Part shown: one piece after another, positions 10,923-35,191 of the stretch
Numbering within the stretch: position 1 is the first letter of the stretch
Layout: every line of letters begins with the position of its first letter
Assembly (NCBI GenBank): GCA_035541415.1
Contig: DATKNI010000030.1
Coordinates: 1,621-65,620 of the forward strand
Length of the DNA stretch: 64,000 nucleotides
Direction of reading: 5' to 3'
Source of the DNA: Minisyncoccota bacterium
GTDB lineage: Bacteria > Patescibacteriota > Minisyncoccia > UBA6257 > 2-01-FULL-56-20
The notes under the pieces: generated by a model
Told to the model about the DNA's origin: nothing
What the model saw: only the letters and a program-made list of their open reading frames with translations
Database searches by the model: none
Program-made: the position numbers and the translations under genes

Positions 10923-10924
10923 TT

Positions 10925-11857
10925 ATGAAAATATTCCTTTCCGGCGGATCGGGCCATTTGGGAAGCGTGCTCGTGCCGCGTTTGCGGGCGGCAGGGCACG
11001 AAGTATCTGCCCCACGGAGCAAGGAATGCGACCTCATGGTTTTTCATGAATGTCTTTCTGCAACCAAAGGATCAGACATGATCATCCATGCCGCAGCCGT
11101 CGCCAAATCGCGCGTGGAACAGATGGCGCATCCATCGGAATCGTTCCGGCCGAACGTCTTGATGACGCTGCAGATCCTCGAAGCGGCGCGCCAAAACAAG
11201 GTAAAGAAGGTTTTGATCGTAAACTCGTTGCGGGCCTATGCCGATATGGAAGCTCCCTTTAAAGAGGAGGCCTTGCTCGAATCAAAGGTTCCGAGCATCA
11301 AGAACAAGACGTTTGGCTATTACGGCCTTTCGAAATGGGTTTCGATCCCTGCCGGGAGGGCATACGCAGCAGAGTTCGAAGACATGAAAATCCGCGAAGT
11401 CGTTTTTTCAAATCTTTACGGCCCGAATGATAAATTTGATTTCGATCCGCCCCCGGCCGTCCCTTCATTCATAAAAAAGATCGCCGCAGCGAAGAAGCAA
11501 GCGATGCCTGCGTTCGATGCGGGGAACAATCCGGGCGCGACGCTCGACCTTCTTTATGTCGACGACGCTGCGGAACTTATGATGCGGGTTGTTGAAAACT
11601 TCGGCGATGGATCATTTGACATCATCAATGGCGGCGGCGGACGCTCATACGAGCTTCGCGAGGTCGCCGATACCGTCGCTGAAGCAGTGGGCTTTAGTGG
11701 TAAAATTACTTGGAGCGGCGAAATAAAAACCCCGCCGATGTTTCTTGATACGGAGAAGGCACATTCGCAATTTGACTGGAAGCCCTCAACAACTTTATCG
11801 AAAGGGATCAACAATACCGTCGAGTGGTTCAATAAAAACTATGGCAAAACAAAATAA
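10925..11857 (+). CDS. NAD-dependent epimerase/reductase (GDP-6-deoxy-4-keto-sugar reductase, Fcl-like)
   Basis: Short-chain SDR fold (FLSGGSGHLGS), directly after gmd. ATG at 10925 follows the gmd stop. Confidence 0.55.
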   Translation: MKIFLSGGSGHLGSVLVPRLRAAGHEVSAPRSKECDLMVFHECLSATKGSDMIIHAAAVAKSRVEQMAHPSESFRPNVLMTLQILEAARQNKVKKVLIVNSLRAYADMEAPFKEEALLESKVPSIKNKTFGYYGLSKWVSIPAGRAYAAEFEDMKIREVVFSNLYGPNDKFDFDPPPAVPSFIKKIAAAKKQAMPAFDAGNNPGATLDLLYVDDAAELMMRVVENFGDGSFDIINGGGGRSYELREVADTVAEAVGFSGKITWSGEIKTPPMFLDTEKAHSQFDWKPSTTLSKGINNTVEWFNKNYGKTK

Positions 11858-14179: not shown

Positions 14180-14214
14180 ATCCCTCGGCATTAACTTCGC
14201 ACGAGGAGGTTATT

Positions 14215-14652
14215 TTGGACAATCTGGAAACGCTCGTAACAACCGTTGGGCCTGCAAATACCGATTCTCGACGCATCATTTGGGAGCCGGTCAATGGCGA
14301 CATGGGCAAATTCTGCCGATTGAATTTTTTCGATTGGACAGGCCAGGAAGCGCCCGGCGGTAACCATTATCACGAAAGAAACGAAGAAGTGTTTTTCGTG
14401 ACCCAAGGAGAAATCTCCAAAATGGTCATCGAGAACATCGACACCAAAGAGCGGCATCGCTGGAAGCATCTCGGCGTTGGCACCGTAATTCATATGCCGG
14501 TGCGTCACGCCCATGCACTGGTGCTTGCTCCCGGAAGCAAAATGATCGCGCTGTGCTCCCAACCGTTCGACGAGAATGACAAGGACATGCCAGTCTACAT
14601 GCTGCTCGACAAAAAAACGGGCGAAGAGATCCCGCAGGCGGTAGCCGCCTAG
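14215..14652 (+). CDS. WxcM/FdtA-like cupin (NDP-4-keto-6-deoxy-sugar 3,4-isomerase family)
   Basis: 145 aa cupin. TTG start with a strong SD; no in-frame ATG nearby. Confidence 0.45.
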   Translation: MDNLETLVTTVGPANTDSRRIIWEPVNGDMGKFCRLNFFDWTGQEAPGGNHYHERNEEVFFVTQGEISKMVIENIDTKERHRWKHLGVGTVIHMPVRHAHALVLAPGSKMIALCSQPFDENDKDMPVYMLLDKKTGEEIPQAVAA

Positions 14653-14750
14653 GGACGTGTGCGCCATGCTTCCCAAAGCATGGCGCATTTTTTAACCCTT
14701 TTATCCTTTGACTTTCGGCGCAAACTGCGCCATTCTATACCTTGTATCCA

Positions 14751-15329
14751 ATGATTCACCCCTATCTCGAAGAATCAATCGCCCTCCAGAAAAAAGTATT
14801 GGAGGATAAAGCCATCGCTGCCACGTTCGATAAAATCGTGCATGCCACGCTCGCTAGCATCAAAAACGGCGGCAAGATTTTGGTTGCCGGCAACGGCGGC
14901 AGTGCTGCCGACGCACAGCACTTCGCGGCGGAATTCGTGGCAATGTACAAAATTGACCGCCGCGCCCATCCGGCGCTTGCGCTCACGACCGACACGTCGG
15001 TTTTAACCGCGGTGAGCAACGACCATCATTTTGACCGAGTTTTCGCGCGCCAGGTTGAAGCACTTGGGACAAAAGGCGACATCCTTTTCCTCCTCACGAC
15101 AAGCGGCAATTCAAAAAATCTTTTGAACGCCGTCCATGTGGCAAAACAGCGCGGCGTGACGACGGTTGCGCTCCTTGGCAAAGGTGGCGGACCGATGAAG
15201 GGCCTCGCTGACTACGAGATCATTGTTCCTTCAGACAACGTGCCGCGCATCCAAGAGGTGCAGAAGCTCATCTTGCACAGCGTTGCAGAAGAAGTGGAGA
15301 AGCGGCATTACAACGAATATCTTTCATAG
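14751..15329 (+). CDS. gmhA: D-sedoheptulose-7-phosphate isomerase
   Basis: SIS domain with the GNGGSAADAQHFAAE motif typical of GmhA. Confidence 0.8.
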   Translation: MIHPYLEESIALQKKVLEDKAIAATFDKIVHATLASIKNGGKILVAGNGGSAADAQHFAAEFVAMYKIDRRAHPALALTTDTSVLTAVSNDHHFDRVFARQVEALGTKGDILFLLTTSGNSKNLLNAVHVAKQRGVTTVALLGKGGGPMKGLADYEIIVPSDNVPRIQEVQKLILHSVAEEVEKRHYNEYLS

Positions 15330-15345
15330 TGATATCATTATCGAT

Positions 15346-15858
15346 ATGGAAGTCGTGAAAACCAAATTGGAAGGAGTTCTGCTCATCAAGCCGGATGTGT
15401 TTGAGGATTTTCGCGGCACGTTCACGGAAACCTATAACGAGGAAGCGTATAAAAAAATCGGGATCACGGACCACTTCACCCAGGACGACATGTCGGTTTC
15501 GGTGAAGCACGTCTTGCGCGGCATCCACATGGAACCGTCGATCGCAAAAATCATTTCGTGCGGCTATGGAAAATTATATTGCGTCGTCGTAAATTGCGAC
15601 GAGAAGTCGAAAGATTTTGGAAAGTGGGATGCGTTCACGCTGACCGACCGCAATCGGTGGCAGGTGTATGTTCCGCCGAAGCATGGCATCGGACATTTGG
15701 TATTGAGCGAAATCGGCATGTTCCATTACAAGCAATCGGGATATTACGATCCGGCCGGACAAAAGAGCTATCGCCACAACGATCCGAAGTTCAAAGTATG
15801 GTGGCCGATAAAGAATCCGATTCTTTCCCAGCGCGACGAAGAGGGTCGTTATGTCTAA
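15346..15858 (+). CDS. NDP-sugar 3,5-epimerase, RmlC-like cupin
   Basis: 170 aa dTDP-4-dehydrorhamnose-3,5-epimerase fold (RG.HMEPS, K.YCVVVN). In a GDP-sugar context it may act on GDP-heptose or GDP-deoxyhexose. Confidence 0.7.
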   Translation: MEVVKTKLEGVLLIKPDVFEDFRGTFTETYNEEAYKKIGITDHFTQDDMSVSVKHVLRGIHMEPSIAKIISCGYGKLYCVVVNCDEKSKDFGKWDAFTLTDRNRWQVYVPPKHGIGHLVLSEIGMFHYKQSGYYDPAGQKSYRHNDPKFKVWWPIKNPILSQRDEEGRYV

Positions 15859-16432
15859 GCTCCTGCGCAAAACCCGTTCATTCCTGGCATTCTGTTATCT
15901 TCATTCGCCGTTCTTTTCCGAAGAGCGGTATTTCCGTTTTCCGGTGGGCATTCTCAAACACGAAATGGAGGGGAAGGCTTCTTTTGAGATCATCCACATC
16001 GGAAGCCAAAAGAGGTTCCCGCGCGCGCTTTGGGAAAAAATATGCAAGCAACGGAGAGTCGGCAATATAACGGTTGTCGAGAATTGGGAAACGTCGCGCG
16101 GCCTTCCTAAAAATTTTTATGATTTTGCGTATGTCGATGACGGCCATTCGTATTCGGCCACGCGGAGCGATATTCTGCATGCTTCCGAATTGCTGCATGA
16201 GGGCGGCGTGCTTGCCGGCGACGACCTTGAGCTTTCGATGGATGAAGTTGATGCCCGGCTCACCGAACAGTGCCGGGAGGATAATCACTGCAAAGATCCG
16301 CGGAGCGGCATGGAATATCATCCGGGCGTCACGTTTGCCATCGGGGAAATTTTGGGAAATTCGTTTTCTCGCGACCGGGCATTCTGGGCGGCGCGTCGCA
16401 TGCAAAACGGCTGGGGCAAATACGGGCAATAA
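15851..16432 (+). CDS. class I SAM-dependent O-methyltransferase (Methyltransf_24 / TylF-MycF-CmcI family)
   Basis: 193 aa; the FAYVDDGHSY motif is characteristic of the sugar O-MTase family. Confidence 0.5.
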   Translation: MSKLLRKTRSFLAFCYLHSPFFSEERYFRFPVGILKHEMEGKASFEIIHIGSQKRFPRALWEKICKQRRVGNITVVENWETSRGLPKNFYDFAYVDDGHSYSATRSDILHASELLHEGGVLAGDDLELSMDEVDARLTEQCREDNHCKDPRSGMEYHPGVTFAIGEILGNSFSRDRAFWAARRMQNGWGKYGQ

Positions 16433-16476
16433 AAATCGCATGACATGCAGTCATGCGATTTTGCTGGTAGAAGCGC

Positions 16477-17472
16477 CTACGGAACGACGCAATCCCAGGT
16501 TCTGATGAGCGGATCGAGCTCTTTCCAAAAGTCATCTGGAATAGGGAACGATGCGAATGCGACATTCTGTTCGACTTCTTTGCGGCTGCGACATCCGGGA
16601 ATGCAAAGCGCAAATTGCGGATGGCGGACGCACCACTGGATCGCTGCCGCGCCGAGCGGGACATCGTGGTTTTCACAAACCTTGATGAGCGTTTGGACAT
16701 AGGTGCGAACTTCCGGGGCGAAATGCCGTTGTTGGTATTTGCGCCCGGCATTGAATCCTTCCGCAAGAATGCCGCGCTCTAGCGCGGTTGCTGCGATGAG
16801 CCCGACGCTGTTTCGTTCGGCCCATGGGATAATGAACCGATTTGCGGTTTGCGAGATCAAACTCCATGAGCCGACGACAATTGCGGCATCGCACATGCCG
16901 GATGCAATATAGTGGCTTGCTGTTTCCGGATTGTCCGCTCCGACGCCGAGATAGTCGGTCATGCCATAATTGCGGACATCCAACATGGCCGTGTAAGCCC
17001 CCTTCTTACCAAAGATGAAGGACGGCCTAACGCCCATGGGGTCGTGGAGGTTGAGGATGGATACCATGCTTATGCCAAGGCGTTCGAGGCTTTGGTCGAA
17101 GCTCCGCCGCGCTGCATCGTATGAAAAATCATACGAATCGTGCGGATAGAGGTGTCCGATTTTAGTTGCAACGAATACTTGGCCTTTGATGTCGGGGCGC
17201 TCGTTAAGCGCCATGCCGATGAAGCTTTCACTCGAACCCTTGCCGTACCACGGTGCGGTGTCAATAAAACGGATGCCTGCGTCGAGTGCCGCAATGACCG
17301 CATCGACACCAAGGGTTTCGTTGGCGAGCGTTCCGAATCCCGGACCGTCCGCATATTGCGCTTGTGCCAAATTGGAGTGGGGAAGGCCGAGCGGGCCAGT
17401 ACCCAGTCCGAGAATAGGCGTTACGATGTTTGTGCCGATCAATTGCTTTTGCTGCATGCGCCTGCCTCCCAT
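16477..17472 (-). CDS. aldo/keto reductase
   Basis: 331 aa TIM-barrel AKR (GLGTG.LG, catalytic tetrad context). Confidence 0.75.
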   Translation of the reverse strand: MGGRRMQQKQLIGTNIVTPILGLGTGPLGLPHSNLAQAQYADGPGFGTLANETLGVDAVIAALDAGIRFIDTAPWYGKGSSESFIGMALNERPDIKGQVFVATKIGHLYPHDSYDFSYDAARRSFDQSLERLGISMVSILNLHDPMGVRPSFIFGKKGAYTAMLDVRNYGMTDYLGVGADNPETASHYIASGMCDAAIVVGSWSLISQTANRFIIPWAERNSVGLIAATALERGILAEGFNAGRKYQQRHFAPEVRTYVQTLIKVCENHDVPLGAAAIQWCVRHPQFALCIPGCRSRKEVEQNVAFASFPIPDDFWKELDPLIRTWDCVVP

Positions 17473-17569
17473 GCCGAACCGTGAATTTGAATAAATTGTA
17501 AACTAGTGCCGCGCTTCTTATATCATTTCTGTTGCCTAAACTCAAGCAGCGTCGTATCATAGGAGCATT

Positions 17570-18514
17570 ATGAAACCACAAAAGATTCTCGTGACGGGCG
17601 GCGCAGGCTATATCGGTTCGATCCTCATCCCCGAACTTTTGCGCGCAGGGCACGAAGTGACGGTCATCGATAATTTTTTATATAGCCAGAGTTCGTTGCT
17701 CGACGTTACGCATTTCAAGACGCTCACCGTCGTCCGCGGCGATGCGCGCAACGAAGCGCTCATAAAAAAGCATATCGAAGGAAAGGATTTCATTATCCCG
17801 CTCGCGTGCATTGTCGGAGCTCCCGCATGCGACGCCGATCCGGTGGCCGCCCGCACGATCAACCTCGAAGCGGTGCAGATGATTTTGCGTCTGCGCAAGC
17901 CGGAACAGAAAATTATTTTCCCGAATACAAACAGCGGGTATGGCCGCATGCAGGAAGGAGTGGCATATTGCGACGAAACGAGCGCGCTTGATCCGGTTTC
18001 GCTCTACGGCAAGCTCAAGGTGCAAGCCGAGCTCGAGATTTTGGCGGCTAAGAACGCGATCACGCTCCGTCTCGCAACGGTTTTCGGAGGCAGTCCGCGC
18101 ATGCGCATGGATCTTCTCGTGAATGATTTCGTGTATCGCGCCCTTATGGACCGCACGGCGGTGCTTTTTGAGCCGCACTTCAAGCGCAACTACATCCACG
18201 TCCGCGACGTGGCGCGCGCGTTCATGCACGCGATGGAGCATTTTGAAAAAATGAAAAACGAGCCGTACAACGTCGGCCTTTCGGATGCAAATTTGAGCAA
18301 GAGCGAACTTTGCGCGGAAATCAAAAAGCAGCTGCCAAAATTTGTCTATGTCGAATCGGCGATCGGGGAGGATCCCGACAAGCGCAACTATATCGTGAGC
18401 AACGCAAAGATTGAAAAGACCGGCTTCAAGCCGCAGTACTCCCTGCAGGACGGCATCACCGAACTCATCAAGGTGTATCAAATCGCGCAGAGGAACGACT
18501 TCACGAATCTTTAA
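17570..18514 (+). CDS. NAD-dependent epimerase/dehydratase (SDR)
   Basis: VTGGAGYIGS Rossmann motif. AGGAG SD 5 nt upstream. Confidence 0.8.
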   Translation: MKPQKILVTGGAGYIGSILIPELLRAGHEVTVIDNFLYSQSSLLDVTHFKTLTVVRGDARNEALIKKHIEGKDFIIPLACIVGAPACDADPVAARTINLEAVQMILRLRKPEQKIIFPNTNSGYGRMQEGVAYCDETSALDPVSLYGKLKVQAELEILAAKNAITLRLATVFGGSPRMRMDLLVNDFVYRALMDRTAVLFEPHFKRNYIHVRDVARAFMHAMEHFEKMKNEPYNVGLSDANLSKSELCAEIKKQLPKFVYVESAIGEDPDKRNYIVSNAKIEKTGFKPQYSLQDGITELIKVYQIAQRNDFTNL

Positions 18515-18547
18515 TCTTTTCGTCGGCGTTTCTTGGCGCTGTCATCA

Positions 18548-18576
18548 TTGACGGATTTATGTCAATTTGGTATTAT
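18548..18576 (+). promoter_or_regulatory. sigma70-like promoter TTGACG-17-TATTAT
   Basis: Read directly in the 18515-18619 intergenic region upstream of the HD-domain gene. Confidence 0.45.
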
Positions 18577-18619
18577 TTCCGCGGTATTTTTGACGCGAAC
18601 AAAATGAAAGGAGTCCACT

Positions 18620-19348
18620 TTGAACAGTTTCTTGGAACAACTTGCCTCCGATTTGAGAAAAGCGTATATCACTCCAAACGTAAGCCGTGGGCACGATTTT
18701 TACCATATCGAACGGATGGTGGCGCGTGGTCCAGAGATCCGTGAATACCTCGTGTTCGAGATGGACGAATATGTCGCGGCGGTGTGGTTGCACAACGTTG
18801 ACCGGTGCGTTCCCCTAAAACAATTGACGGCGGAGCTCGGCGGACTGAGAAAGTGCATCCTTTCGCTTTTGGAAGGGAGCGATTTTTCTCCTGAGGCCAA
18901 AGAGAGGATCATCGACGCAGTGCTTCAGCACAGTAAAAAAGACGATGAACCAGGCGATAGCCCTCTGCTGCTCGCTCTTCGGGTGGCAGATAAGTTGGAC
19001 CGTTTTATTCCAACCCTTCTCGTGGAAGCTCCTGCGTCATGGGGGCACCTGCCGATTTTCGTGGCCCAACATCCCTTCGGTTATGATCCCACCGAGGCCG
19101 GTGAACGGGGTACCGCCGGACATCAGAGCATCTATCAGACGTATTATCGGGTGCTTGAGTGGATCCCGATGATGCCTGAATGGGCTCGGGGCCTGATCCG
19201 TCGGGACCATCTTCGGCTGTTTATCACCTTCTTGCGGCTCTTGGGAGCGCAAGCGGCAGATCAGTTCCACGTGACCAACCAGGTTGAAGATGATATTCGT
19301 CACGCTCTTGGTCCCTGCTACGAATGGGCCAATGTATACATCGCGTGA
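18620..19348 (+). CDS. hypothetical protein, possible HD-domain phosphohydrolase
   Basis: 242 aa. H...HD-like motif (GHDFYHIERM) and ALRVADKLDRF. TTG start with an AAAGGAG SD. Confidence 0.35.
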   Translation: MNSFLEQLASDLRKAYITPNVSRGHDFYHIERMVARGPEIREYLVFEMDEYVAAVWLHNVDRCVPLKQLTAELGGLRKCILSLLEGSDFSPEAKERIIDAVLQHSKKDDEPGDSPLLLALRVADKLDRFIPTLLVEAPASWGHLPIFVAQHPFGYDPTEAGERGTAGHQSIYQTYYRVLEWIPMMPEWARGLIRRDHLRLFITFLRLLGAQAADQFHVTNQVEDDIRHALGPCYEWANVYIA

Positions 19349-19433
19349 GCATTTTCAGTTTCCTGCGGGCACCTTGCATAAGGGTGCCCGTTTTTTATTC
19401 GCAAAATTTGGAAAAAGGTGTACGATAAGCCAT

Positions 19434-20384
19434 ATGTATAAAAGAATTCTTGTGACGGGTGGCAGCGCGGTTGCGGGCGATGGGTTGAAGAGCGTCGTGG
19501 CGAAAGGGGAATATGACGGACGCGAATTTATTTTCCCGACGTCAAAAGAGTGCAACATGCTCGATTTTGAAGCGACCCAAAAATTTGTCGCGGATTGGAA
19601 GCCGGATGCCATTGTGCATTTCGCGGCCATCTCCGGCGGTATCCAGCTCACTATCGACCATCCGGCAAGCGTCATGCGCGACAACATCATCATGAACTTC
19701 AACGTCGCTGAAGCGGCGCGGGTGAACGGAGTTAATAAAGTTTTAATGACGCTCTCAGCGGCAATCTATCCTTTGGACACGCCTCTCCCCATGAAAGAAG
19801 AAGATATGCATAAAGGTTATCCGCATGAGACGAATTACAGCTACGCATTTGCAAAACGTCTCATCGACCCGATGGCCAAAGCATACAAGAAAGAATATGG
19901 CATGAGCATCGTTGGCATCATCCCTGGCGCGATCATAGGCCCCAAAAGCAACTTCGATCCCAAAAGCTCTACGGCAATCCCGGCGCTCATCCGGCGATTC
20001 TTTGAAAACCGCGGGAACAACGATCCTCTCGTTGTTTGGGGCGATGGCTCACCCGTGCGCCAGTTCACCTCGGACGAAGACATCGCCCGCATTGCCATGT
20101 GGTGCATTGATAATTATGACGATCCGCAGGTTTTGAATGTGAGCACCATGGAAGATCTCTCTATCAAAGAGGCAGCTTATGTCATCGCCAAAGCGCTCGG
20201 CGTGGATTCCGGGCGCATAACATTCGACACGACAAAGCCCGCAGGAACCCACAGTCAGGGCGTGGACAATAGCAAATTCGTTTCGCTTTCACATTTCAAA
20301 TACACGCCGGCGCGTGAAACGATAACGCGGACGGCGAAATATTTTGCAGAACATTATCCCGATCCGAAAAAACTGCGGTTGTAA
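19434..20384 (+). CDS. fcl: GDP-L-fucose synthase-like reductase/epimerase (Fcl/WcaG/GER family)
   Basis: ILVTGGSA...AIVHFAAISGGIQ...NNIIMNFNV..AA...GVNK colinear with GDP-4-keto-6-deoxymannose 3,5-epimerase-4-reductases. ATG at 19434. Confidence 0.65.
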   Translation: MYKRILVTGGSAVAGDGLKSVVAKGEYDGREFIFPTSKECNMLDFEATQKFVADWKPDAIVHFAAISGGIQLTIDHPASVMRDNIIMNFNVAEAARVNGVNKVLMTLSAAIYPLDTPLPMKEEDMHKGYPHETNYSYAFAKRLIDPMAKAYKKEYGMSIVGIIPGAIIGPKSNFDPKSSTAIPALIRRFFENRGNNDPLVVWGDGSPVRQFTSDEDIARIAMWCIDNYDDPQVLNVSTMEDLSIKEAAYVIAKALGVDSGRITFDTTKPAGTHSQGVDNSKFVSLSHFKYTPARETITRTAKYFAEHYPDPKKLRL

Positions 20385-20401
20385 TAATCTATTATCACGC
20401 C

Positions 20402-21382
20402 ATGAACTATCGCACCATCGGGAAAACCGGGATCACCGTTTCCGAGATCGGTTTCGGGGCGTGGGGGATCGGCGGTGAAACGCAGGACGGTGCAAATTCA
20501 TACGGCAAGACCGATGACGCAGAATCAAAGCGCGCGCTGGAGCGCGCCTTTGAACTCGGCATCACGTTCTATGACACCTCAAACATTTATGGCTACGGCC
20601 ACAGCGAGGAATTGCTCGGCGAAGTTTTTAGCAAGCGGCGCGATAAAGTCGTGATAGCGGGAAAAGCGGGATTTACGAAGCACGACGGCCCGCACGATCT
20701 CTCGCCGGCATATTTACGAAAGTGTCTTGAAGAAAGCTTGCGCCGTTTGAAAACCGATTATATCGATGTCTACCAACTTCACAGTCCGCCGATCTCGCTC
20801 ATCGAAGAACATCCGGAATGCGTTGAAGAATTGCAGAAGATGAAATCCGAAGGCAAGATCCGCGCGATCGGCATCTCGGTAAAAGGTCCGGGCGACGCTC
20901 TTCCTGCCATCGAAAAATTTGGTTTCGAATCGGTACAGGTGAATTTCAATCTGATTGACCAGCGCGCGCTCGAGACTGGCGCGTTCGAGGCGGCACGGAA
21001 GCACGGCGCAGGGATCATCGCCCGCACGCCGCTCGCGTTCGGATTTCTCACGGGCGCAATAACCGATCTTCATTTCCCGCCGCATGACCATCGTTCGGCA
21101 TGGCCGGAACGGCAATTGAAGCTGTGGGCGGATGCCCCAAATGCGTTTGCATTCCTTCGCAAAGGGAAAGACTGGACGCCCACGCAGCTTGCCCTCAAGT
21201 TCTGTATCAGTTTTAATGCCGTATCGGCGGTAATTCCCGGGATACTCCATCCAAGCGAGGCCGAGCAAAATGCAGCGGCGAGCGAGGGGGCGCTGCTTAC
21301 CAAGCAGGAGATTGATGCCGCAATTGAGGTCTATAAGACACGCGAGTTTTTCGACAGATCTGCCGTGCGCAAGGTCGCATGA
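20402..21382 (+). CDS. aldo/keto reductase
   Basis: 326 aa AKR (GFGAWGIGG, YDTSNIYGYGHSEELLG). Confidence 0.8.
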   Translation: MNYRTIGKTGITVSEIGFGAWGIGGETQDGANSYGKTDDAESKRALERAFELGITFYDTSNIYGYGHSEELLGEVFSKRRDKVVIAGKAGFTKHDGPHDLSPAYLRKCLEESLRRLKTDYIDVYQLHSPPISLIEEHPECVEELQKMKSEGKIRAIGISVKGPGDALPAIEKFGFESVQVNFNLIDQRALETGAFEAARKHGAGIIARTPLAFGFLTGAITDLHFPPHDHRSAWPERQLKLWADAPNAFAFLRKGKDWTPTQLALKFCISFNAVSAVIPGILHPSEAEQNAAASEGALLTKQEIDAAIEVYKTREFFDRSAVRKVA

Positions 21383-21430
21383 CGCGATTCTTGAAACGCC
21401 CAATTCGGCGTGTTATAGTCGTGTATACCT

Positions 21431-22042
21431 ATGACCAAAGAAGAACTTATCCAATTTGAACAGGAGATAGCTGACGCCTATTGTGCCGGCCAAATCAGGG
21501 GCCCGGTGCATCTTTCTGATGGAAACGAAGACCAGTTGATCGAATTATTTAAAGGCATCAAAAAATCGGACTGGGTTTTTTCGACGTGGCGCAGCCATTA
21601 TCACGCGCTCCTTCACGGCGTTCCCAAAGAAGAGGTGAGAGCCGAGATCATGAAGGCCAACAGCATCACGCTCAGTTTCCCCGAGCACCGCTTTTTCACG
21701 TCCGCAATCGTAAACGGAATCACTCCGATCGCCGTCGGCGCCGCGATGGGCATAAAGAGAAAGGGAGAAGACCGGCATGTTTGGTGTTTTGTCGGTGACA
21801 TGGCGGCGGAAGCGGGAGTTTTCTATGAAAACGTAAAATATGCCGATAACCACGGCCTCCCGATCACGTTCGTTGTCGAAGACAACGGGCAGAGCGTCGG
21901 TACGCCGACGGATGTCGTCTGGGGATACGACAGATCGAAAGAGAAGCCGGATTATTTAAAATGGGACAGGAAGAATTTGATTTATTATCGTTACGAGAAA
22001 AAATGGCCTCACGTCGGGGCTGGCGTATGGGTGACATTCTAA
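21431..22042 (+). CDS. thiamine-diphosphate enzyme, E1-alpha-like (PP-domain) subunit
   Basis: 203 aa, ThDP-binding GDMA...N motif (CFVGDMAAEAGVFYENVKYADNHGLPITFVVEDNG). Confidence 0.6.
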   Translation: MTKEELIQFEQEIADAYCAGQIRGPVHLSDGNEDQLIELFKGIKKSDWVFSTWRSHYHALLHGVPKEEVRAEIMKANSITLSFPEHRFFTSAIVNGITPIAVGAAMGIKRKGEDRHVWCFVGDMAAEAGVFYENVKYADNHGLPITFVVEDNGQSVGTPTDVVWGYDRSKEKPDYLKWDRKNLIYYRYEKKWPHVGAGVWVTF

Positions 22043-22045
22043 ACT

Positions 22046-22588
22046 ATGAAATATCGTGAAGAATTAAGAAGGGCGGTCCTTTATCTCGCAGAACACCCGA
22101 AGACCATTTTTATCGGGCAGAGCGTTTCATATCCCGGCAATGCGATCTATACCGGATCCCTCAAGGATGTCCCAATGGAGAAAAAAATCGAAATGCCCGT
22201 ATTCGAAGAAACGCAAATGGGCATGTCTATCGGCCTCGCCATGGAAGGATTCATTCCGGTCAGCGTTTTCCCTCGGTATAATTTTTTGATTGTTGCGGCA
22301 AACCAGCTCATCAATCATTTGGATAAGATTCCTCATATCTCACATGGCAAACTTCGCCCGAAGGTGATCATAAAGACAATGGTGGGCGGCGTGCGGCCGC
22401 TTGATCCGGGAGTTCAGCACAAAAGCAACTTCACCGAGGCGTTCCGCCATCTCGTTTCGGAAAATATTGTCATCGAAGACCTCACCGAGCCTGAGATGAT
22501 ATTCCCTGCGTATCAGCGGGCGCTTGAAAGGGAAGATGGCAAGTCGACGATTCTGGTTGAGTACGGCGACTTTAATAAGGAAAAATAA
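22046..22588 (+). CDS. thiamine-diphosphate enzyme, E1-beta/transketolase pyrimidine-binding-domain subunit
   Basis: 180 aa Pyr-domain protein (FIGQSV...ETQMGMSIGLAMEG), translationally adjacent to the alpha-like subunit. Confidence 0.6.
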   Translation: MKYREELRRAVLYLAEHPKTIFIGQSVSYPGNAIYTGSLKDVPMEKKIEMPVFEETQMGMSIGLAMEGFIPVSVFPRYNFLIVAANQLINHLDKIPHISHGKLRPKVIIKTMVGGVRPLDPGVQHKSNFTEAFRHLVSENIVIEDLTEPEMIFPAYQRALEREDGKSTILVEYGDFNKEK

Positions 22589-22676
22589 CTCTCTCGCGCG
22601 CAGCGTGGCGAGGGTTTGTCTGGATTTTAGCGCTGGTATCTTCCTTTGGATTGTGGTTTAATACCCGTGTTTCCCT

Positions 22677-23684
22677 ATGATTATCACGCGGACCCCATTT
22701 CGAATGTCATTTTTTGGCGGCGGGACGGACTATCCCGTCTGGTATGAAAAGCACGGAGGTGCGGTACTTTCGACTACAATCGATAGATTTTGTTATGTGA
22801 CGTGCCGTTACTATCCGCCGTTTTTTGACGCCAAGGTGCGCGTCGTTTGGTCAAAGATCGAACTCGTTCAAAACGCGAACGAACTTGAACATCCGATTGC
22901 ACGCCACACGTTAAATTTTTTAAATCTTCCCAAAAATATTGAAATTCATCACGCCGCCGATCTTCCGGCTCGCTCCGGCCTTGGTGCAAGTTCGTCGTTC
23001 ACCGTCGGTCTCTTGAACGCTCTCTATGCGTTGCTTGGGAAAAAGACAACTAAAGCGGATCTGGCTTCCGAGGCCATCCATATCGAGCGCGTGCTTGCCG
23101 GGGAAACCGTCGGCTCGCAGGACCAAGTGGCCGCCGCATTCGGCGGCTTCAATAAGATAGTTTTCCGCACCGACGGGAATATCGAAGTTATTCCTTTGAG
23201 CATTTCAGGCAATGTGCTTCGCGGCCTCAAAGATCGCTTGCTGCTTTTCTTCACCGGCCTTTCGCGCAGCGCTTCCGAAGTCGCGAGCGTACAGGTTAAG
23301 AATACTCCACAGAAAGAAAAAGAGCTGATAGCCATGCACGACATGGTGGACGAAGGGGTGAAATTTCTTGAAAACGGCGCACTCGACGACTTCGGCAAAC
23401 TGCTTCATGAAGCATGGCAGATGAAGCGGAGCTTGACGCCGCTCATCGCGAACGGCCACATCGATGCGATCTATGAAGCTGCGCGGAGCGCAGGCGCGAT
23501 CGGAGGCAAGCTTCTTGGTGCGGGCGGGGGAGGATTTATGCTCGTGTACGCGGATCCTTCCCGGCACAAGGCAATCAAGGAAAAACTTTCAAAATTCCTC
23601 TGCGTGCCATTCGACTTTGAACAAGAGGGGACGCAGGTTATCCACCAGAGCGGAGGCGTACTCGATGGTGTAAACTTTACATAA
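22677..23684 (+). CDS. hddA: GHMP sugar kinase, D-glycero-D-manno-heptose 7-phosphate kinase-like
   Basis: N-terminal RTPFRMSFFGGGTDYP and PARSGLGASSSF GHMP ATP-binding motif, colinear with HddA. Confidence 0.7.
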   Translation: MIITRTPFRMSFFGGGTDYPVWYEKHGGAVLSTTIDRFCYVTCRYYPPFFDAKVRVVWSKIELVQNANELEHPIARHTLNFLNLPKNIEIHHAADLPARSGLGASSSFTVGLLNALYALLGKKTTKADLASEAIHIERVLAGETVGSQDQVAAAFGGFNKIVFRTDGNIEVIPLSISGNVLRGLKDRLLLFFTGLSRSASEVASVQVKNTPQKEKELIAMHDMVDEGVKFLENGALDDFGKLLHEAWQMKRSLTPLIANGHIDAIYEAARSAGAIGGKLLGAGGGGFMLVYADPSRHKAIKEKLSKFLCVPFDFEQEGTQVIHQSGGVLDGVNFT

Positions 23685-23697
23685 TCATTAAAAAACC

Positions 23698-24696
23698 ATG
23701 AACGACCAACCCCAAAACAAAGCTCCCCGGATCTCGATTTTGATGCCGTCGTGGAATGCGGAAAAATATGTTGCGAGCACGCTCGATACGATCGTCATGC
23801 AGTCGTTCACGGATTGGGAAGCGATCGTTATGGATGGCGGATCCAAAGATCGGACTGTGGAAATTGCCCGCGGATACCAGAAGAAATATCCGAATATCCG
23901 CATATTTTCTGAGCCGGACGAAGGTCCATATCATGCAATCCACAAAGCTGCCCTTGCCGCGCGGGGCGAATTTTTAGTTGAAATGTGTTTTTCGGATGGC
24001 TATCTCGATAAGGATTGGTTTGCGAAGTGCGTTGCCGCGATGGATGCCGACCCGGAACTTTCGCTCGTGTGGGGCATTCCTTTTGACATGACGGAAGAAG
24101 GAGAGCTCAAAGGCCCAAGTTATGTATATGCCCGTTTCCTTCCAGATGAATACCGGGCGAAAAGCCCCAAAACCCCAGTGCTCAAAAAATTTATTAAGAA
24201 AATCGACGTTCGCCGTCCGTCGTCAATTTTGCGCGTAATCAAAAAAATCAATCCCACAAACGCGCGCATGGCGATCCACATGTTCAAACACGAAGAGCCA
24301 AAAAACAAAGAGGCATGGTTCCTCTATTGGCTCGAAACCGGAACAATTTTTCCGGATCTCAACATGTTCATGACAAAGAAAGTCTTTTTTGATTGCATGG
24401 AGCCATATGTCATGGGAACCCGTGAGACTGGCGATTGGATGCAATTTTATTTCAACTTCAACACCAAAGGATTCCTCTCGCGATGCATTCCGGTTCCGGC
24501 AAACTTCGGCCGCGTGCATGAAGGATCGGTGAGCGATCGTGTGAGAGGGTACAACGACGAGAAGCATCGTCGATATATAAAAATGGTCGTCGAGTTTGAG
24601 AAAAAGACACTATCACATCCCGGACAATTTTCGTTCGTCGATCGCGAAGGAAATCCGGTGCGGACGCTCGCCGACTACCAAGGAGGGCCCCGATAA
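23698..24696 (+). CDS. glycosyltransferase family 2
   Basis: ISILMPSWNAEKYV... N-terminal GT-A fold with a DxD region. Confidence 0.75.
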   Translation: MNDQPQNKAPRISILMPSWNAEKYVASTLDTIVMQSFTDWEAIVMDGGSKDRTVEIARGYQKKYPNIRIFSEPDEGPYHAIHKAALAARGEFLVEMCFSDGYLDKDWFAKCVAAMDADPELSLVWGIPFDMTEEGELKGPSYVYARFLPDEYRAKSPKTPVLKKFIKKIDVRRPSSILRVIKKINPTNARMAIHMFKHEEPKNKEAWFLYWLETGTIFPDLNMFMTKKVFFDCMEPYVMGTRETGDWMQFYFNFNTKGFLSRCIPVPANFGRVHEGSVSDRVRGYNDEKHRRYIKMVVEFEKKTLSHPGQFSFVDREGNPVRTLADYQGGPR

Positions 24697-24721
24697 ATAA
24701 AGGGCGGCGGCAGGGGATTCG

Positions 24722-25891
24722 TCAACGACCGATGATCGATTTGATTGCCGCTTTCACAGTCGGCGACTTCAGCGCCGTTTTTTTAAGATTGTTTGCAATC
24801 GCACGTTTTGCAGAGGCGCTCCGGTCTTGTCTGAAAATTGCATCCCGGTAAGGAGCCACCGCCTCGATTGCCTTCTTATTCGCATACCAGAGTTTTTTCC
24901 GTCCATCAATTGAATAACATGTCAGATATTTTGAAAGGATGGATTTGATGGAGGTGAGAACCTTGACCCCCTTTTCGACATAAGCGAGATCGTCATAGAC
25001 CGTGTCGTGGTTTTCTTCATACAGCAAGCCCTTTTCGGCGATGGTTGATCCGATGATGCCAGCGTATTCATCAACCTGATTTCGCGTCATTTCCCCGAAC
25101 GAGCCGGTGTTGATAATGAGGTCGAATTTTGTGACATTGACAAGGTCCTGAGCCAGAAAATTCGGCACGAAAGTAAAGCGGCTTCCCTTTGGATCGAGAA
25201 CCGATTTGTCGCGGCCGTCGTAGATCGATTTCTCATCCACATACTGCGGCATTGTGACTTGCAGATAGATGGAAGAAAAGAAAAGCGATTCGGCGAGGTC
25301 AATCATATAGTAGCGCGCATTAGGCAAAAGCTCTTTTAGCTTATAGGCGAGCGCTCCGTAGCCGCTTCCAATCTCGAGTATTTTTGGCTCCTCAAGTGTT
25401 GCCAGGCGATCAAGCACGCCCTCGAAATATAATGCGGAAATATGCTTTTGATACATAAGCGTATCATCATTCACGATGCCGCCATTTATAACCCACCCGC
25501 ACTCTGCCATGATCCGCGGTGGACGATAAATATATTTGTCGGGAAGGCCTGCGGTCTTTTTCTTATAGGCTTTCAATAATTTTTTGGGGACGACGTTGTG
25601 GTGGGCGATTGTGTAGGGGAGCAGGGAATTACCGGGAAAAAGATACGTGTGCAAGCGCCAGGTGTTTACAACCTCATACGTCGGGTTAAAACAATATGCC
25701 ATAAGCTGGATCAGGTCCCAGATAAAATTTGGATCGACCGTGCCAGGATTGGACGTCTCCCGCTCTGCTATGAGTTTGCCACGATGGGCAATGATACTTC
25801 TTAGTTTTCCCGCCAAGAGTGATGCCTTGCGATAGTCTTCCTGCGAAATACTCGGGAAATTTTCCTCGAAGAGCTTTTTGCTGTTCTCCAT
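24722..25891 (-). CDS. putative sugar O-methyltransferase (class I SAM-MTase)
   Basis: 389 aa. SAM-binding ILEIGSGYGALA motif in an architecture typical of LPS/glycan-cluster sugar O-MTases. Confidence 0.5.
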   Translation of the reverse strand: MENSKKLFEENFPSISQEDYRKASLLAGKLRSIIAHRGKLIAERETSNPGTVDPNFIWDLIQLMAYCFNPTYEVVNTWRLHTYLFPGNSLLPYTIAHHNVVPKKLLKAYKKKTAGLPDKYIYRPPRIMAECGWVINGGIVNDDTLMYQKHISALYFEGVLDRLATLEEPKILEIGSGYGALAYKLKELLPNARYYMIDLAESLFFSSIYLQVTMPQYVDEKSIYDGRDKSVLDPKGSRFTFVPNFLAQDLVNVTKFDLIINTGSFGEMTRNQVDEYAGIIGSTIAEKGLLYEENHDTVYDDLAYVEKGVKVLTSIKSILSKYLTCYSIDGRKKLWYANKKAIEAVAPYRDAIFRQDRSASAKRAIANNLKKTALKSPTVKAAIKSIIGR

Positions 25892-25942
25892 AATTCCCTT
25901 ATTATATCATCAGTTTTCGGTTAGCTGCTAGTATGTCTTGCC

Positions 25943-26797
25943 GTGTATAATATAGTGGTGAAAACCACCGTCGTAAGCATCCTTATGCCGACCTATAATC
26001 GCGTCGGCCTCCTCGAGCGGTCCATCAAAAGCATCCTGCGGCAGTCGTTTGCCGATTTTGAATTGCTCATCGTGAACGACGCCTCGACCGACGGCACAAA
26101 GGCATACCTCGACTCGCTTGCCGCGCACGATGCGCGCGTGCGGCCGATCCATAACGCCCGCAACAACTATCCGGATATTTCAAAAAATTTGAACGAAGGC
26201 CTCATGCAGGCGCGCGGCAAATATATCGCGCGGCTTGATGACGACGATTATTGGTGCGATGACGAAAAATTGCAAAAACAAGTTTCATTCCTCGATTCGC
26301 ATCCCGATTATATGATCGTCGGCGGAGGAACGATCGTGATCGACGAAAACGATACGGAGCGGTTCCGGTATTTGAAACTCGAAACGGATGAAGCGATCCG
26401 CAGCAAGGCGCTTTTTGCAAATCCATTCACGCATTCCACGGTGATGTTCCGCCGCGAGGATGCCGTTGCCGTCGGCGGATATGGCAACTTCAAAAATGCG
26501 GAAGATTGGGAGTTGTGGCTCAAGCTCGGCGTGCGCGGGAAGTTCTATAACTTCCAGGAATATTTTGTGCGTTATCTGCTCACCTCGCAAAGCAAAACAT
26601 TTTTATTCAAGCGTTCGCAATCGGAGGAAATATTAAAAATTATTAAAGCGCACCGGAACGAATATCCCAACTTTCTTGGCGGTTACCTGCTGAATTTCGG
26701 CCAGTATTGCTACAGTTTATTGCCCGACGGCTTGCGCAATGCCCTCTACAACACGCTCTCGCGCGCCAAGCGCACGGTATTCTCTTCGCAATCATAA
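25943..26797 (+). CDS. glycosyltransferase family 2
   Basis: VSILMPTYNR...LIVNDASTDGT GT-A signature. GTG start; the exact start is uncertain (alternatives 25955/25958). Confidence 0.75.
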   Translation: MYNIVVKTTVVSILMPTYNRVGLLERSIKSILRQSFADFELLIVNDASTDGTKAYLDSLAAHDARVRPIHNARNNYPDISKNLNEGLMQARGKYIARLDDDDYWCDDEKLQKQVSFLDSHPDYMIVGGGTIVIDENDTERFRYLKLETDEAIRSKALFANPFTHSTVMFRREDAVAVGGYGNFKNAEDWELWLKLGVRGKFYNFQEYFVRYLLTSQSKTFLFKRSQSEEILKIIKAHRNEYPNFLGGYLLNFGQYCYSLLPDGLRNALYNTLSRAKRTVFSSQS

Positions 26798-26823
26798 ATT
26801 CGTATTACAATTGAGGAGTAACC

Positions 26824-27393
26824 ATGGACGACACCATAGCATTGGCATTTCTTGACCAGGACGGCGTGATCACAAAAGAAGTCCACCATCTCCATCGCAT
26901 GGAAGATTTGGAAATTCTTCCGAATGTCGCGAAGGCGATCCGCGCAATCCGGGCGAAAGGATTTAAGATTGCCGTCATCACGAACCAAGCCGCTGTTGCA
27001 AAAGGGATTGTCGAGCTCGATCAGGTTCTCGCCCTCCAAAAAGAAATCGTGCGCCGGCTTGCCGACGAGGGCGCCGTCATCGATGGCTATTTTTATTGCC
27101 CCCATCATCCGCAAGGGACGGTCGAGCCGTACAACCGTGAATGCGACTGCCGCAAGCCGGAGCCTGGCATGTTCAAAAGGGCGGCCGTAGAGTTCCAAGA
27201 AAAATTCGGCAAAAAAGTCGATTTCTCGGCGAGTGTTACGGTCGGTGATAAGACAGGCGATATCCTTGCCGGGCAAGCGGTCGGAACGCGGACCGTTTTG
27301 GTAGAGACCGGCTACGGCGGCAAAGACGGCGTGCACGAGGCAACCCCTGATTTCGTCGCCAAAGACCTCTTTGATGCGGTTCAGTACTTCTAA
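26824..27393 (+). CDS. gmhB: D-glycero-D-manno-heptose 1,7-bisphosphate phosphatase (HAD-IIIA)
   Basis: LDQDGVIT HAD motif I and YFYCPHHPQG...CDCRKPEPGM zinc-binding insert diagnostic for GmhB. Confidence 0.85.
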   Translation: MDDTIALAFLDQDGVITKEVHHLHRMEDLEILPNVAKAIRAIRAKGFKIAVITNQAAVAKGIVELDQVLALQKEIVRRLADEGAVIDGYFYCPHHPQGTVEPYNRECDCRKPEPGMFKRAAVEFQEKFGKKVDFSASVTVGDKTGDILAGQAVGTRTVLVETGYGGKDGVHEATPDFVAKDLFDAVQYF

Positions 27394-27460
27394 CCGTATA
27401 ACCAAGAGCAAATCCCCGTGGGATTGATAATATTTCACAAATCTGTTTAATATATAGCGT

Positions 27461-28180
27461 ATGAAAGGCGTTATTCTCGCAGGTGGAAACGGAACCCGAT
27501 TGCGTCCAGTGACCTTCGAAATTCCCAAACCCCTCATCACGATTAAGAAAAAGCCGCTCATCAATTATAATCTCGATCTTCTGACCGCGGCGCATGTTGA
27601 CGACGTCAAGGTGATTATTCGTCCGCAGGACGATCCGGATTACAAGCGCTGGCTCCGCGAATATGCGCCCCACTATCCTTCGATGAACATCGAGCTTATC
27701 CTCGAATCGGAGCCGATGGGGACGCTCGGCTATGTTTTCCATCATCTCCAATCGTGGATCGGCAAGGATGATGTGTTTGTGGTGAACGGCGACGTGATCC
27801 ACAAAGGCGTCGACGTGAAAGCGATGCTCAAGCACCACGGCACGATTGGCATGCCCGCGACGATCGCGCTCATCAAAGTGGATCGTCCCGACGATTATGG
27901 CACGGCAGTTCTTGACGGCCACACCATTACTGAATTTGCGGAAAAAAAGAAAGGCCTTCCCGCCGGCCTTGTAAACGCTGGCCTCTACATGATCACGAAC
28001 AAGGCGCTGAAGCACATTGCGGAAGCCGGCGTCACCGGTCCGAAATATTTAATGTTTGAAAAAGAGATGTTCCCGGTGCTCGCAAACAGCAAGAAACTCG
28101 GCGGCTTTGTTGCCGACGGCGGCATGTTCTACGATTGCGGCACGTTTGAACGCTGGGAGAAGGCGATCAACGAAGTTTAA
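27461..28180 (+). CDS. hddC: sugar-1-phosphate nucleotidyltransferase, heptose-1-phosphate guanylyltransferase-like
   Basis: N-terminal GVILAGGNGTRLRP..FEIPKPL NTP-transferase motif; directly after gmhB. Confidence 0.65.
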   Translation: MKGVILAGGNGTRLRPVTFEIPKPLITIKKKPLINYNLDLLTAAHVDDVKVIIRPQDDPDYKRWLREYAPHYPSMNIELILESEPMGTLGYVFHHLQSWIGKDDVFVVNGDVIHKGVDVKAMLKHHGTIGMPATIALIKVDRPDDYGTAVLDGHTITEFAEKKKGLPAGLVNAGLYMITNKALKHIAEAGVTGPKYLMFEKEMFPVLANSKKLGGFVADGGMFYDCGTFERWEKAINEV

Positions 28181-35186: not shown

Positions 35187-35191
35187 GGCGG

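Follow-up and report, generated by a model that had tools for sequence, protein, structure and literature searches.

What does a bacterium of the candidate phyla radiation (CPR) build with a set of Campylobacter-like heptose genes that encloses two miniature subunits of a thiamine diphosphate (ThDP) enzyme? The question is raised by a 64,000-nucleotide stretch of a Minisyncoccota genome (assembly GCA_035541415.1, contig DATKNI010000030.1, forward-strand positions 1,621 to 65,620), which we call the window and whose coordinates are used throughout. A six-frame listing of open reading frames (ORFs) and profile searches placed in it a contiguous glycan island of ~30 kb, from ~5745 to ~35800. The island as such is ordinary for a glycan locus; the heptose-linked mini-E1 enzyme within it is conserved, unexpected, and directly testable. 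Our favored account, in which we have slightly more belief than doubt, is that the heptose half of this Wzx/Wzy island would make a GDP-heptose, oxidize it at C4 with a Cj1427-type enzyme, and branch it with the ThDP pair.

Probable GDP-heptose synthesis and oxidation at C4

To assign functions we matched the ORFs to Pfam and NCBIfam profiles, applying the NCBIfam equivalog cut-offs, and searched the PDB by sequence for solved relatives. Four genes match the families of a GDP-heptose route:

14751-15329, plus strand: GmhA, sedoheptulose-7-phosphate isomerase; TIGR00441 199 bits (cut-off 209), full-length; SIS_2 94 bits
22677-23684, plus strand: HddA-family GHMP kinase (heptose-7-phosphate anomeric kinase); NCBIfam HddA 169 bits (cut-off 600)
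26824-27393, plus strand: GmhB, heptose-1,7-bisphosphate 7-phosphatase (HAD-IIIA); NF006506 149 bits (cut-off 178); zinc loop CxH...CxC, CPHHPQG...CDCRKPEPGM
27461-28180, plus strand: short NTP-transferase (HddC-like guanylyltransferase); Pfam NTP_transferase 113 bits; HddC model 84 bits (cut-off 300)

The best PDB matches of the kinase were four HddA/WcbL heptose-7-phosphate kinase structures at ~148 bits, followed by the next family, fucokinase, at 54 bits. Because it scored 169 bits against an equivalog cut-off of 600, we read it as a divergent member of the HddA family. The nearest solved relatives of the NTP-transferase were mannose-1-phosphate guanylyltransferases (98 bits; RmlA, 75 bits), and that the nucleotide would be GDP is suggested mainly by the Cj1427-type partner described below. 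On this family-level evidence, GmhA, the HddA-like kinase, GmhB, and the HddC-like enzyme would together yield GDP-heptose. The original prediction, made from the letters of the sequence, had named the same four genes; all four were matched by profiles and the GmhB motif was verified. Its choice of the GHMP-kinase (GDP) route rather than the HldE route is likewise borne out by HddA/WcbL as the closest solved relatives of the kinase.

The following genes could modify the heptose:

17570-18514, plus strand: short-chain dehydrogenase/reductase (SDR), predicted Cj1427-type GDP-heptose C4-dehydrogenase; PDB 6vo6/6vo8, E 9.6e-107, 360 bits, full length
15346-15858, plus strand: RmlC-fold nucleoside diphosphate (NDP)-4-keto-sugar 3- and/or 5-epimerase; Pfam dTDP_sugar_isom 159 bits
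19434-20384, plus strand: Fcl-like SDR, predicted C4 reductase without epimerase activity; human GDP-fucose synthase (GFS) in the PDB, 209 bits; start taken from the called gene in locus L001
15851-16432, plus strand: Methyltransf_24-like protein; weak Pfam match (28 bits) to the C-terminal half of the profile only
24722-25891, minus strand: NanM-like putative sugar O-methyltransferase; TIGR04371 "sugar O-methyltransferase" 71 bits (cut-off 44)
16477-17472, minus strand: aldo-keto reductase (AKR); Pfam Aldo_ket_red 146 bits; no counterpart in related loci

The SDR at 17570-18514 had been taken for an extra SDR epimerase. It is instead a near match of PDB 6vo6 (E about 1e-106), taken to be of the C4-dehydrogenase type; its next PDB match scored only 74 bits, and its homologues adjoin HddA/GmhA-like genes in many loci. 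If the enzyme is of the Cj1427 type, oxidation would take place at C4 and the C6 hydroxyl would be kept, giving GDP-4-keto-heptose as in the HS:2-type route; removal of the C6 oxygen finds no support here. This step has strong homology behind it and is consistent with Campylobacter jejuni, in which serotypes that possess a Cj1427-type enzyme and lack a 4,6-dehydratase make 6-hydroxy-heptoses only; the enzymology of Cj1427 and of the heptose epimerases and reductases has been described (PMC10680097). We consider a GDP-heptose pathway with Cj1427-type C4 oxidation very probable.

In the PDB, the RmlC-fold protein matched RmlC at 112 bits and the C. jejuni GDP-4-keto-heptose epimerases at 88 to 97 bits, in a search that could not separate the two types. 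Its homologues (45-67% identity) recur in heptose loci, and this genomic context supports a role on heptose. The Fcl homologue at 19434-20384 scored 209 bits with true GFS but 92-95 bits with the C. jejuni heptose reductases MlghC/Cj1428. Compared with E. coli Fcl, its Ser/Tyr/Lys residues are kept and the equivalents of Cys109 and His179 are Ala and Lys. Because these are the epimerase positions, the protein probably only reduces and depends on the separate RmlC-like epimerase, a division of labor also seen in the Campylobacter pairs. The two enzymes would together produce an epimerized heptose, perhaps decorated by a methyltransferase. As to the latter, the original prediction had counted two sugar O-methyltransferases; the gene at 24722-25891 passed TIGR04371, but the one at 15851-16432 gave just the weak half-match listed above. 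The broader claim, that a dedicated heptose-remodeling program lies inside a Wzx/Wzy glycan island, was upheld.

A miniature ThDP enzyme pair

The most unusual component of the heptose operon, an E1alpha/beta pair in its middle (21431-22588), was missing from the gene inventory of the original prediction. The two genes lie on the same strand, 3 bp apart, between an AKR gene and the kinase gene:

20402-21382, plus strand: AKR directly upstream of the pair, candidate branch ketoreductase; Pfam 202 bits
21431-22042, plus strand: miniature E1alpha-like ThDP-binding (PP-domain) subunit, 203 aa; Pfam E1_dh 73 bits, TIGR03182 (pyruvate dehydrogenase (PDH) E1alpha) 101 bits
22046-22588, plus strand: miniature E1beta-like pyrimidine-binding (PYR-domain) subunit, 180 aa, without a transketolase-C domain; NCBIfam PDH E1beta 47 bits

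In the E1alpha-like protein the cofactor motif GDM-x26-EDN was invariant across 27 homologues. The E1beta-like protein aligned to E1beta residues ~20-140 and kept the cofactor-activating Glu and the active-site His. An AlphaFold2 (AF2) model of the E1alpha-like protein reached a predicted local distance difference test (pLDDT) score of 92, and its top Foldseek matches were exclusively 2-oxoacid dehydrogenase E1alpha subunits (TMq ~0.8, TMt ~0.46), of which the model covers under half (~46%). Weak DXP_synthase_N matches were also seen.

Proteins of this size are numerous. At E<=1e-10 a word-indexed search returned 2456 relatives of the E1alpha-like protein, a set that probably includes some canonical E1alpha; the best 120 of the 2456 were all ~180-250 aa long. 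From an exhaustive profile search we obtained 197 cluster representatives at E<=1e-30 with a constant length of ~200 aa. Natural alpha-beta fusions of ~400 aa also exist. One possibility for such short subunits is that they are truncated pseudogenes of a PDH operon. We rejected it because the lengths are constant (~200 and ~180 aa), because the cofactor residues are kept in hundreds of homologues, and because the fusions exist. As judged from these sequence features, the pair is an intact E1-type ThDP enzyme. In dehydrogenase complexes, the C-terminal regions of E1alpha and E1beta that are missing here serve interactions with lipoyl groups and E2; their loss therefore fits a free-standing decarboxylase or carboligase.

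Several variants were seen among the relatives. The small E1alpha homologue P0150 is interrupted by an intein, and in P0146 the E1alpha match is preceded on its N-terminal side by a LAGLIDADG domain. Two loci, L003 (3991-5783 and 10001-11157) and L010 (2849-4726 and ~10000-11162), hold a full-length E1alpha/beta pair (~300 + 300 aa) plus a miniature pair in the same sugar cluster; the full-length pair of L003 has a transketolase-C domain. Since the two kinds coexist, they are not simple substitutes for each other, and their joint presence suggests two distinct ThDP-dependent steps.

To compare the surroundings of the pair, we took 80 loci from named genomes, translated their ORFs, and assigned each to its best-matching window protein. 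The loci come from CPR bacteria, DPANN archaea, SAR11, Actinomycetota, Chloroflexota, Bacteroidota, and others. E1beta accompanied E1alpha in 72 of the 80. Co-occurrence was counted in the 36 loci whose flanks reach 8 kb or more on each side. Of these fully flanked loci, 28 had GmhA- and/or HddA-like genes (median 42-45% identity) and 32 had an SDR of the Cj1427 or 4,6-dehydratase class, the latter figure being without a proper background control; a heptose gene and such an SDR occurred together in 27 of 36.

What lies beside the pair is typically a keto-sugar generator and a ketone-processing enzyme, the neighbors being 3-dehydratases, SDRs, or AKRs. The most frequent downstream neighbors were a 3-dehydratase (11 loci) and an SDR (9 loci). 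DegT-family genes in these loci were of the 3-dehydratase-like His type in 27 of 32 cases, including all 15 within 1.5 kb of the pair. With E1a and E1b for the two subunits, the recurrent orders were Cj1427-HddA-E1a-E1b-DegT and E1a-E1b-Cj1427-HddA-HddC-DegT. Locus L010 is syntenic with the window (RmlC-Cj1427-HD-Fcl-AKR-E1a-E1b-HddA-GT2-GT2-GmhB-HddC-Wzx-...-WbaP, 49-84% identity), and the position of the AKR at 20402 beside the pair is kept in L010 (80%) and in L011 (57%). We had considered the apparent absence of GDP-mannose 4,6-dehydratase (Gmd) from L010 as an argument for placing the Fcl homologue in the heptose block; it was dropped, since a 10-kb flank would miss a Gmd placed as in the window.

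Possible substrate and product of the pair

The likely role of the pair depends on the keto-sugars that the island can offer it. Upstream of gmhA lies a second group of sugar genes:

7894-8889, plus strand: GDP-mannose 3,5-epimerase (GME) homologue of the SDR family; Pfam Epimerase, SSACxYP and GREKAPAA motifs
8890-9792, plus strand: GT11 (alpha-1,2-fucosyl-type) glycosyltransferase; Pfam Glyco_transf_11 122 bits
9855-10922, plus strand: Gmd; TIGR01472 490 bits (cut-off 415)
10925-11857, plus strand: Fcl/ColC-like SDR (4-keto reductase, possibly 5-epimerase too); NCBIfam Fcl 121 bits, E. coli GFS in the PDB 87 bits
11841-13058, plus strand: DegT-family pyridoxamine phosphate (PMP)-dependent NDP-4-keto-sugar 3-dehydratase (E1/ColD type); His for the Schiff-base Lys (FSTYVAHILITGVGG; FSTYVAH motif)
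14215-14652, plus strand: small cupin, weakly FdtA/WxcM-like; Cupin_1/Cupin_2/FdtA 20-24 bits, cupin His motifs in the translation; start may be 14302

A minus-strand ORF at 14191-14688 (165 aa) fully overlaps the cupin gene and is probably spurious, as only the plus frame has family matches and cupin motifs. The original prediction had listed a Gmd, two Fcl-like reductases, an RmlC-like and a WxcM-like cupin, and two AKRs, all within 14751-28180. All are present in the island, but the Gmd, one Fcl-like gene, and the weak cupin lie upstream of that interval.

The GME homologue, which the original prediction had not recognized, aligned with A. thaliana GME over 316 aa at 51% identity (315 bits), as compared to 23% identity with E. 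coli Fcl. Its presence in a CPR bacterium would imply synthesis of GDP-L-galactose or GDP-L-gulose. Gmd, the only 4,6-dehydratase of the island, is an equivalog-level match in this hexose block. Its nearest PDB relatives were MUR1 (433 bits), E. coli Gmd (399 bits), and human Gmd (389 bits), in a comparison with solved structures that could not separate Gmd from heptose 4,6-dehydratases. We read it as a hexose enzyme because of its equivalog score, its nearest relatives, and its hexose neighbors (GME homologue, GT11, and ColC-like SDR). Together with these it would form a separate block for GDP-mannose-derived (deoxy)hexoses of the L-galacto series.

The "aminotransferase" at 11841-13058 is a His-type 3-dehydratase, the His having been assigned by alignment to Lys-type DegT homologues; the Lys-to-His change is the signature of the DegT-family 3-dehydratases E1, ColD, and SpnQ (PMC8987622). 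Its best PDB matches were E1 dehydrase (192 bits) and ColD (157 bits). In L013, from a Desulfomonile metagenome-assembled genome, a DegT gene only 736 bp away from the ThDP pair encodes a protein with which it shares 53% identity.

With these enzymes, a branching route can be proposed in which the His-type 3-dehydratase would take O3 off GDP-4-keto-heptose, the ThDP pair would decarboxylate pyruvate and add the C2 unit at C4 of the (3-deoxy-)4-keto GDP-heptose, and the adjacent AKR at 20402 would reduce the acetyl branch to a 1-hydroxyethyl group. We propose it for three reasons. E1alpha/beta enzymes of the alphaKADH2 group attach a pyruvate-derived C2 branch to NDP-keto-sugars, after which the ketone is reduced or transaminated (PMC4802897, PMC12247030). 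The order of yersiniose synthesis is a 3-dehydratase, a ThDP enzyme that acts on the 3-deoxy-4-keto acceptor, and then a reductase (PMC9306805). Finally, the module of keto generator, 3-dehydratase, and ThDP pair is conserved across loci. A C. jejuni C3-dehydratase takes the Cj1427 product in vitro (PMC10680097), and a 3-deoxy-4-keto-heptose is therefore chemically accessible. On balance we give even chances to the pair being a C-branching enzyme. More tentatively, and leaning to doubt, we suggest that it could represent a new and widespread class of minimal ThDP carboligase that makes a 3-deoxy-4-C-(1-hydroxyethyl or 1-acetyl)-heptose, a "hepto-yersiniose", on the surfaces of CPR, DPANN, SAR11, and freshwater Actinomycetota. 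We also considered that the pair might recycle the NADH of Cj1427 through 2-oxoglutarate chemistry and found no support for it.

Several observations weigh against a branched heptose. To our knowledge, branched heptoses have not been reported from any glycan, and our literature search found none; a full-text search likewise found no report that ties ThDP enzymes to heptose synthesis. The 3-dehydratase of the window, 8 kb from the pair and adjoining Gmd, could instead work in colitose synthesis. About 40% of canonical E1alpha is missing from the pair, as is the entire C-terminal domain of E1beta, and its identity to solved E1s is ~20-25%. The SDR count among the fully flanked loci is weakened by the fact that SDRs are common in any glycan locus. 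As for the heptose itself, the kinase, GmhB, and the nucleotidyltransferase all scored under their NCBIfam equivalog cut-offs, and we therefore infer their substrate and nucleotide. The identification of PDB 6vo6 with the Campylobacter Cj1427 GDP-heptose C4-dehydrogenase, made on its PDB molecule name, is likewise a putative one. Two further points, the genes upstream of the pair and a kinase fusion, would fit a role early in the pathway and are taken up below.

Three other explanations have to be set against the branched heptose. The pair might act on a hexose instead, branching the GDP-4-keto-3,6-dideoxymannose that Gmd and the 3-dehydratase would supply to give a GDP-linked, yersiniose-like sugar, while the heptose is merely epimerized, reduced, and methylated. 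The 3-dehydratase does adjoin Gmd and the ColC-like SDR; L014 and L016 have an unbroken Gmd-Fcl-E1a-E1b run; the miniature pair is also found where no heptose gene lies within 10 kb (L003, L013, L015, L024, and L041); and a deoxy-keto hexose is the substrate in every ThDP branching reaction characterized (PMC9306805, PMC12247030). In the window, however, the pair is embedded in the heptose operon, with the Fcl-like and AKR genes on one side and hddA on the other, and Gmd is 11 kb away; across loci GmhA/HddA-like genes co-occur with it at the frequency given above, often in the order Cj1427-HddA-E1a-E1b-3-dehydratase without any Gmd orthologue. We regard a hexose acceptor as unlikely. A somewhat poorer prospect is the one that the original prediction had favored, in which Gmd is a GDP-heptose 4,6-dehydratase of the DmhA/DdahA type and the Fcl-like reductases and RmlC-like epimerase complete 6-deoxy O-methyl heptoses (3,6-dideoxy with the 3-dehydratase), the pattern of Yersinia and of C. 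jejuni HS:23/36 or HS:5. Because the known 4,6-dehydratases of heptose are homologous to Gmd, the Gmd profile match is compatible with this route. Gmd, the His-type 3-dehydratase, the RmlC-like epimerase, and the Fcl-like reductases are all found in one island; in the CPR loci L011, L014, and L016 the ThDP pair has a Gmd orthologue (66-72% identity) next to it; and C. jejuni HS:5 makes a 3,6-dideoxyheptose with exactly such an enzyme set (PMC10680097). Against it stand the closeness, among solved structures, of the equivalog-level Gmd to genuine plant, E. coli, and human GDP-mannose dehydratases, its hexose-specific flanking partners (GME homologue and GT11), and a Cj1427-type C4-oxidase already in the island, which keeps the C6 hydroxyl and is the mark of the 6-hydroxy route in C. 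jejuni. The original prediction had named, as the outcome that would tell against it, hexose-type Gmd/Fcl homologues together with heptose left unmodified; Gmd does look hexose-type, yet the heptose is clearly not left unmodified.

The remaining explanation moves the pair to the start of the pathway, as a minimal transketolase- or 1-deoxyxylulose-5-phosphate synthase (DXS)-like enzyme that would feed GmhA and HddA with sedoheptulose-7-phosphate, or with a different ketose phosphate, in hosts whose pentose-phosphate pathway is reduced. Here belong the points deferred above: the gene immediately upstream of the pair is HddA-like in 9 loci, the commonest case, and GmhA in 4, and P0199, a small E1alpha homologue, carries an APH-family kinase domain fused at its N terminus. 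CPR and DPANN account for many of the hosts, and the weak DXP_synthase_N matches point the same way. In both sequence and fold, however, the pair is of the 2-oxoacid-dehydrogenase E1 type and not a transketolase, and its commonest downstream neighbors, the 3-dehydratase and the SDR, are late enzymes. It is also present in deoxysugar loci without heptose genes, and it is frequent in SAR11 and Actinomycetota, groups that have an ordinary transketolase. We consider a ketose-phosphate role improbable. Branching of a C4-oxidized GDP-heptose by the pair stays our preferred reading.

Assembly of the glycan and comparison with known systems

Assembly and export of the glycan can be assigned to the following genes; an orphan protein from the middle of the heptose operon closes the list:

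5745-7226, plus strand: Wzy_C (O-antigen ligase/polymerase/O-oligosaccharyltransferase family) membrane protein at the left island edge; Pfam Wzy_C 80.6 bits
13058-14140, plus strand: glycosyltransferase (Glyco_trans_1_2); Pfam 98.5 bits
23698-24696, plus strand: GT2 glycosyltransferase; Pfam 82 bits
25985-26797, plus strand: GT2 glycosyltransferase; Pfam 116 bits; start taken from the called gene in L001
28177-29685, minus strand: Wzx-type flippase; Pfam Polysacc_synt 127 bits
32144-33490, minus strand: WbaP-type polyprenyl-phosphate sugar-phosphate transferase; Pfam Bac_transf 218 bits
33529-34410 and 34461-35366, minus strand: GT2 glycosyltransferase pair; Pfam 104 and 73 bits
18620-19348, plus strand: orphan HD-fold (metal-dependent phosphohydrolase-like) protein; structure prediction

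Six glycosyltransferases, the WbaP-type primer, Wzx, and the Wzy_C protein would thus assemble and export the glycan. The original prediction had named the same WbaP-type primer, Wzx flippase, and Wzy-like gene, which the Bac_transf, Polysacc_synt, and Wzy_C matches confirm, but had counted five glycosyltransferases. Because NCBI lists an identical protein under a "Candidatus Paceibacterota bacterium" metagenome-assembled genome and the nearest related loci come from Minisyncoccia, Paceibacterota, and Saccharibacteria, the host is a CPR bacterium (Patescibacteria, Paceibacterota). In such an organism, which lacks lipopolysaccharide (LPS), the product would presumably be a polysaccharide of the wall or a glycan linked to protein.

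The island is bounded on the left by RNase Y (4119-5666), directly upstream of the Wzy_C gene, and on the right by a DsbA-like gene (36348) and the housekeeping genes GroEL and GyrB. The G+C content falls to 0.48-0.52 within it as compared to ~0.55 outside. No tRNA or mobile-element signature was found at its flanks; the window contains two tRNA-Ser genes, at 44427-44514 and 63441-63531 (GGA and GCT anticodons), far outside the island.

The orphan HD-fold protein, also absent from the original prediction, had no Pfam or NCBIfam match and only 11 homologues in 5.8e9 proteins. Its AF2 model (pLDDT 90) matched YpgQ/YedJ-like HD hydrolases in Foldseek with template modeling (TM) scores of 0.55-0.60. 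Distant homologues are also found in glycan clusters, adjoining Dabb-domain genes (L089 and L090). Among the other genes, a 215-aa protein at 7233-7880, after the Wzy_C gene, has no Pfam or NCBIfam match, and together with Wzy_C it also heads the related CPR loci L014 and L016 (42-53% identity). Positions 29760-32012, flanked by the Wzx gene and the WbaP-type gene, encode a protein of 750 aa that contains an LCAT-like (lipase/acyltransferase) domain and is kept in an identical ENA contig. For 35822-36715, too, Pfam and NCBIfam gave no match. Outside the island, 61597-62553 (minus strand) encodes a protein of the Peptidase A4 (scytalidoglutamic peptidase) family (125 bits), which is best known from fungi, and an M13 peptidase is encoded nearby (52535-54652).

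Experiments have revealed hardly anything about the surface glycans of CPR, DPANN, and SAR11 cells, although these surfaces mediate episymbiotic attachment, phage recognition, and resistance to grazing. The island offers an assayable pathway, in which a Campylobacter-type heptose route is joined by an uncharacterized minimal thiamine enzyme that is tied genomically to heptose genes in distant lineages. If the proposal is true, branched heptoses would be a new class of monosaccharide, ThDP sugar branching would extend from the deoxyhexoses of antibiotics and LPS to GDP-heptoses, and a compact carboligase (~380 aa in total) would be available for tertiary-alcohol synthesis. If branching is wrong, the family of the pair remains a conserved, uncharacterized step in heptose glycan synthesis.

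Among known systems, the C. jejuni HS:2 capsule pathway is the closest counterpart of the heptose core, which on homology would be a new member of the HS:2 type. The GmhA/HddA/GmhB/HddC route, the 6vo6-type oxidase (360 bits), an RmlC-fold putative epimerase, a separate Fcl-fold putative reductase, and methyltransferases are common to both; in HS:2 the steps after GDP-heptose are carried out by the C4-dehydrogenase Cj1427, the epimerase Cj1430, and the reductase Cj1428. On the other hand, the epimerase and reductase of the window resemble RmlC and true GDP-fucose synthases at least as much as they do the Campylobacter enzymes, and its host is a monoderm-type CPR bacterium with Wzx/Wzy, whereas C. 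jejuni uses an ABC-transporter capsule system. The ThDP enzyme, the two AKRs, and the HD-fold protein are absent from the 20 catalogued C. jejuni heptose enzymes (PMC10680097). The upstream block resembles the synthesis of GDP-colitose, GDP-fucose, and GDP-L-galactose (Gmd, ColD, ColC, Fcl, and GME) in its Gmd, His-type 3-dehydratase, Fcl/ColC-like SDR, GME homologue, and GT11. No ManB, and no ManC besides the HddC-like enzyme, was found in the island. Unlike in colitose synthesis, the 3-dehydratase is nearer to E1 dehydrase than to ColD and is most similar to the DegT protein of L013.

The ThDP pair itself is most like the alphaKADH2 branching enzymes AviB1/B2, Plm8/9, AlmDI/DII, and KbDH-alpha/beta. 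These too are two-subunit E1-type ThDP enzymes in nucleotide-sugar clusters, beside a 4-keto generator and a ketone processor, and their documented chemistry is pyruvate-derived C2 branching at C3 or C4. Compared by description, the subunits of the window are much smaller (203 and 180 aa versus ~300-330 aa each) and have no transketolase-C (TH3) domain. Because it differs in subunit size and in this domain, we do not file the small pair as an alphaKADH2 member. The settings also differ, with surface-glycan islands of CPR, DPANN, SAR11, and others in place of actinomycete biosynthetic gene clusters, and GDP-heptose partners in place of dTDP-deoxyhexose. The predicted order of reactions is that of the yersiniose A pathway, in which CDP-4-keto-6-deoxyglucose undergoes 3-deoxygenation by E1/E3, ThDP-dependent branching by YerE, and reduction by YerF: a 4-keto sugar, a His-type PMP 3-dehydratase, ThDP-dependent acyl addition at C4, and NAD(P)H ketoreduction. 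YerE, however, is a single-chain flavoenzyme of the decarboxylase family that works on a CDP-linked 6-deoxyhexose, whereas the window encodes an E1alpha/beta pair.

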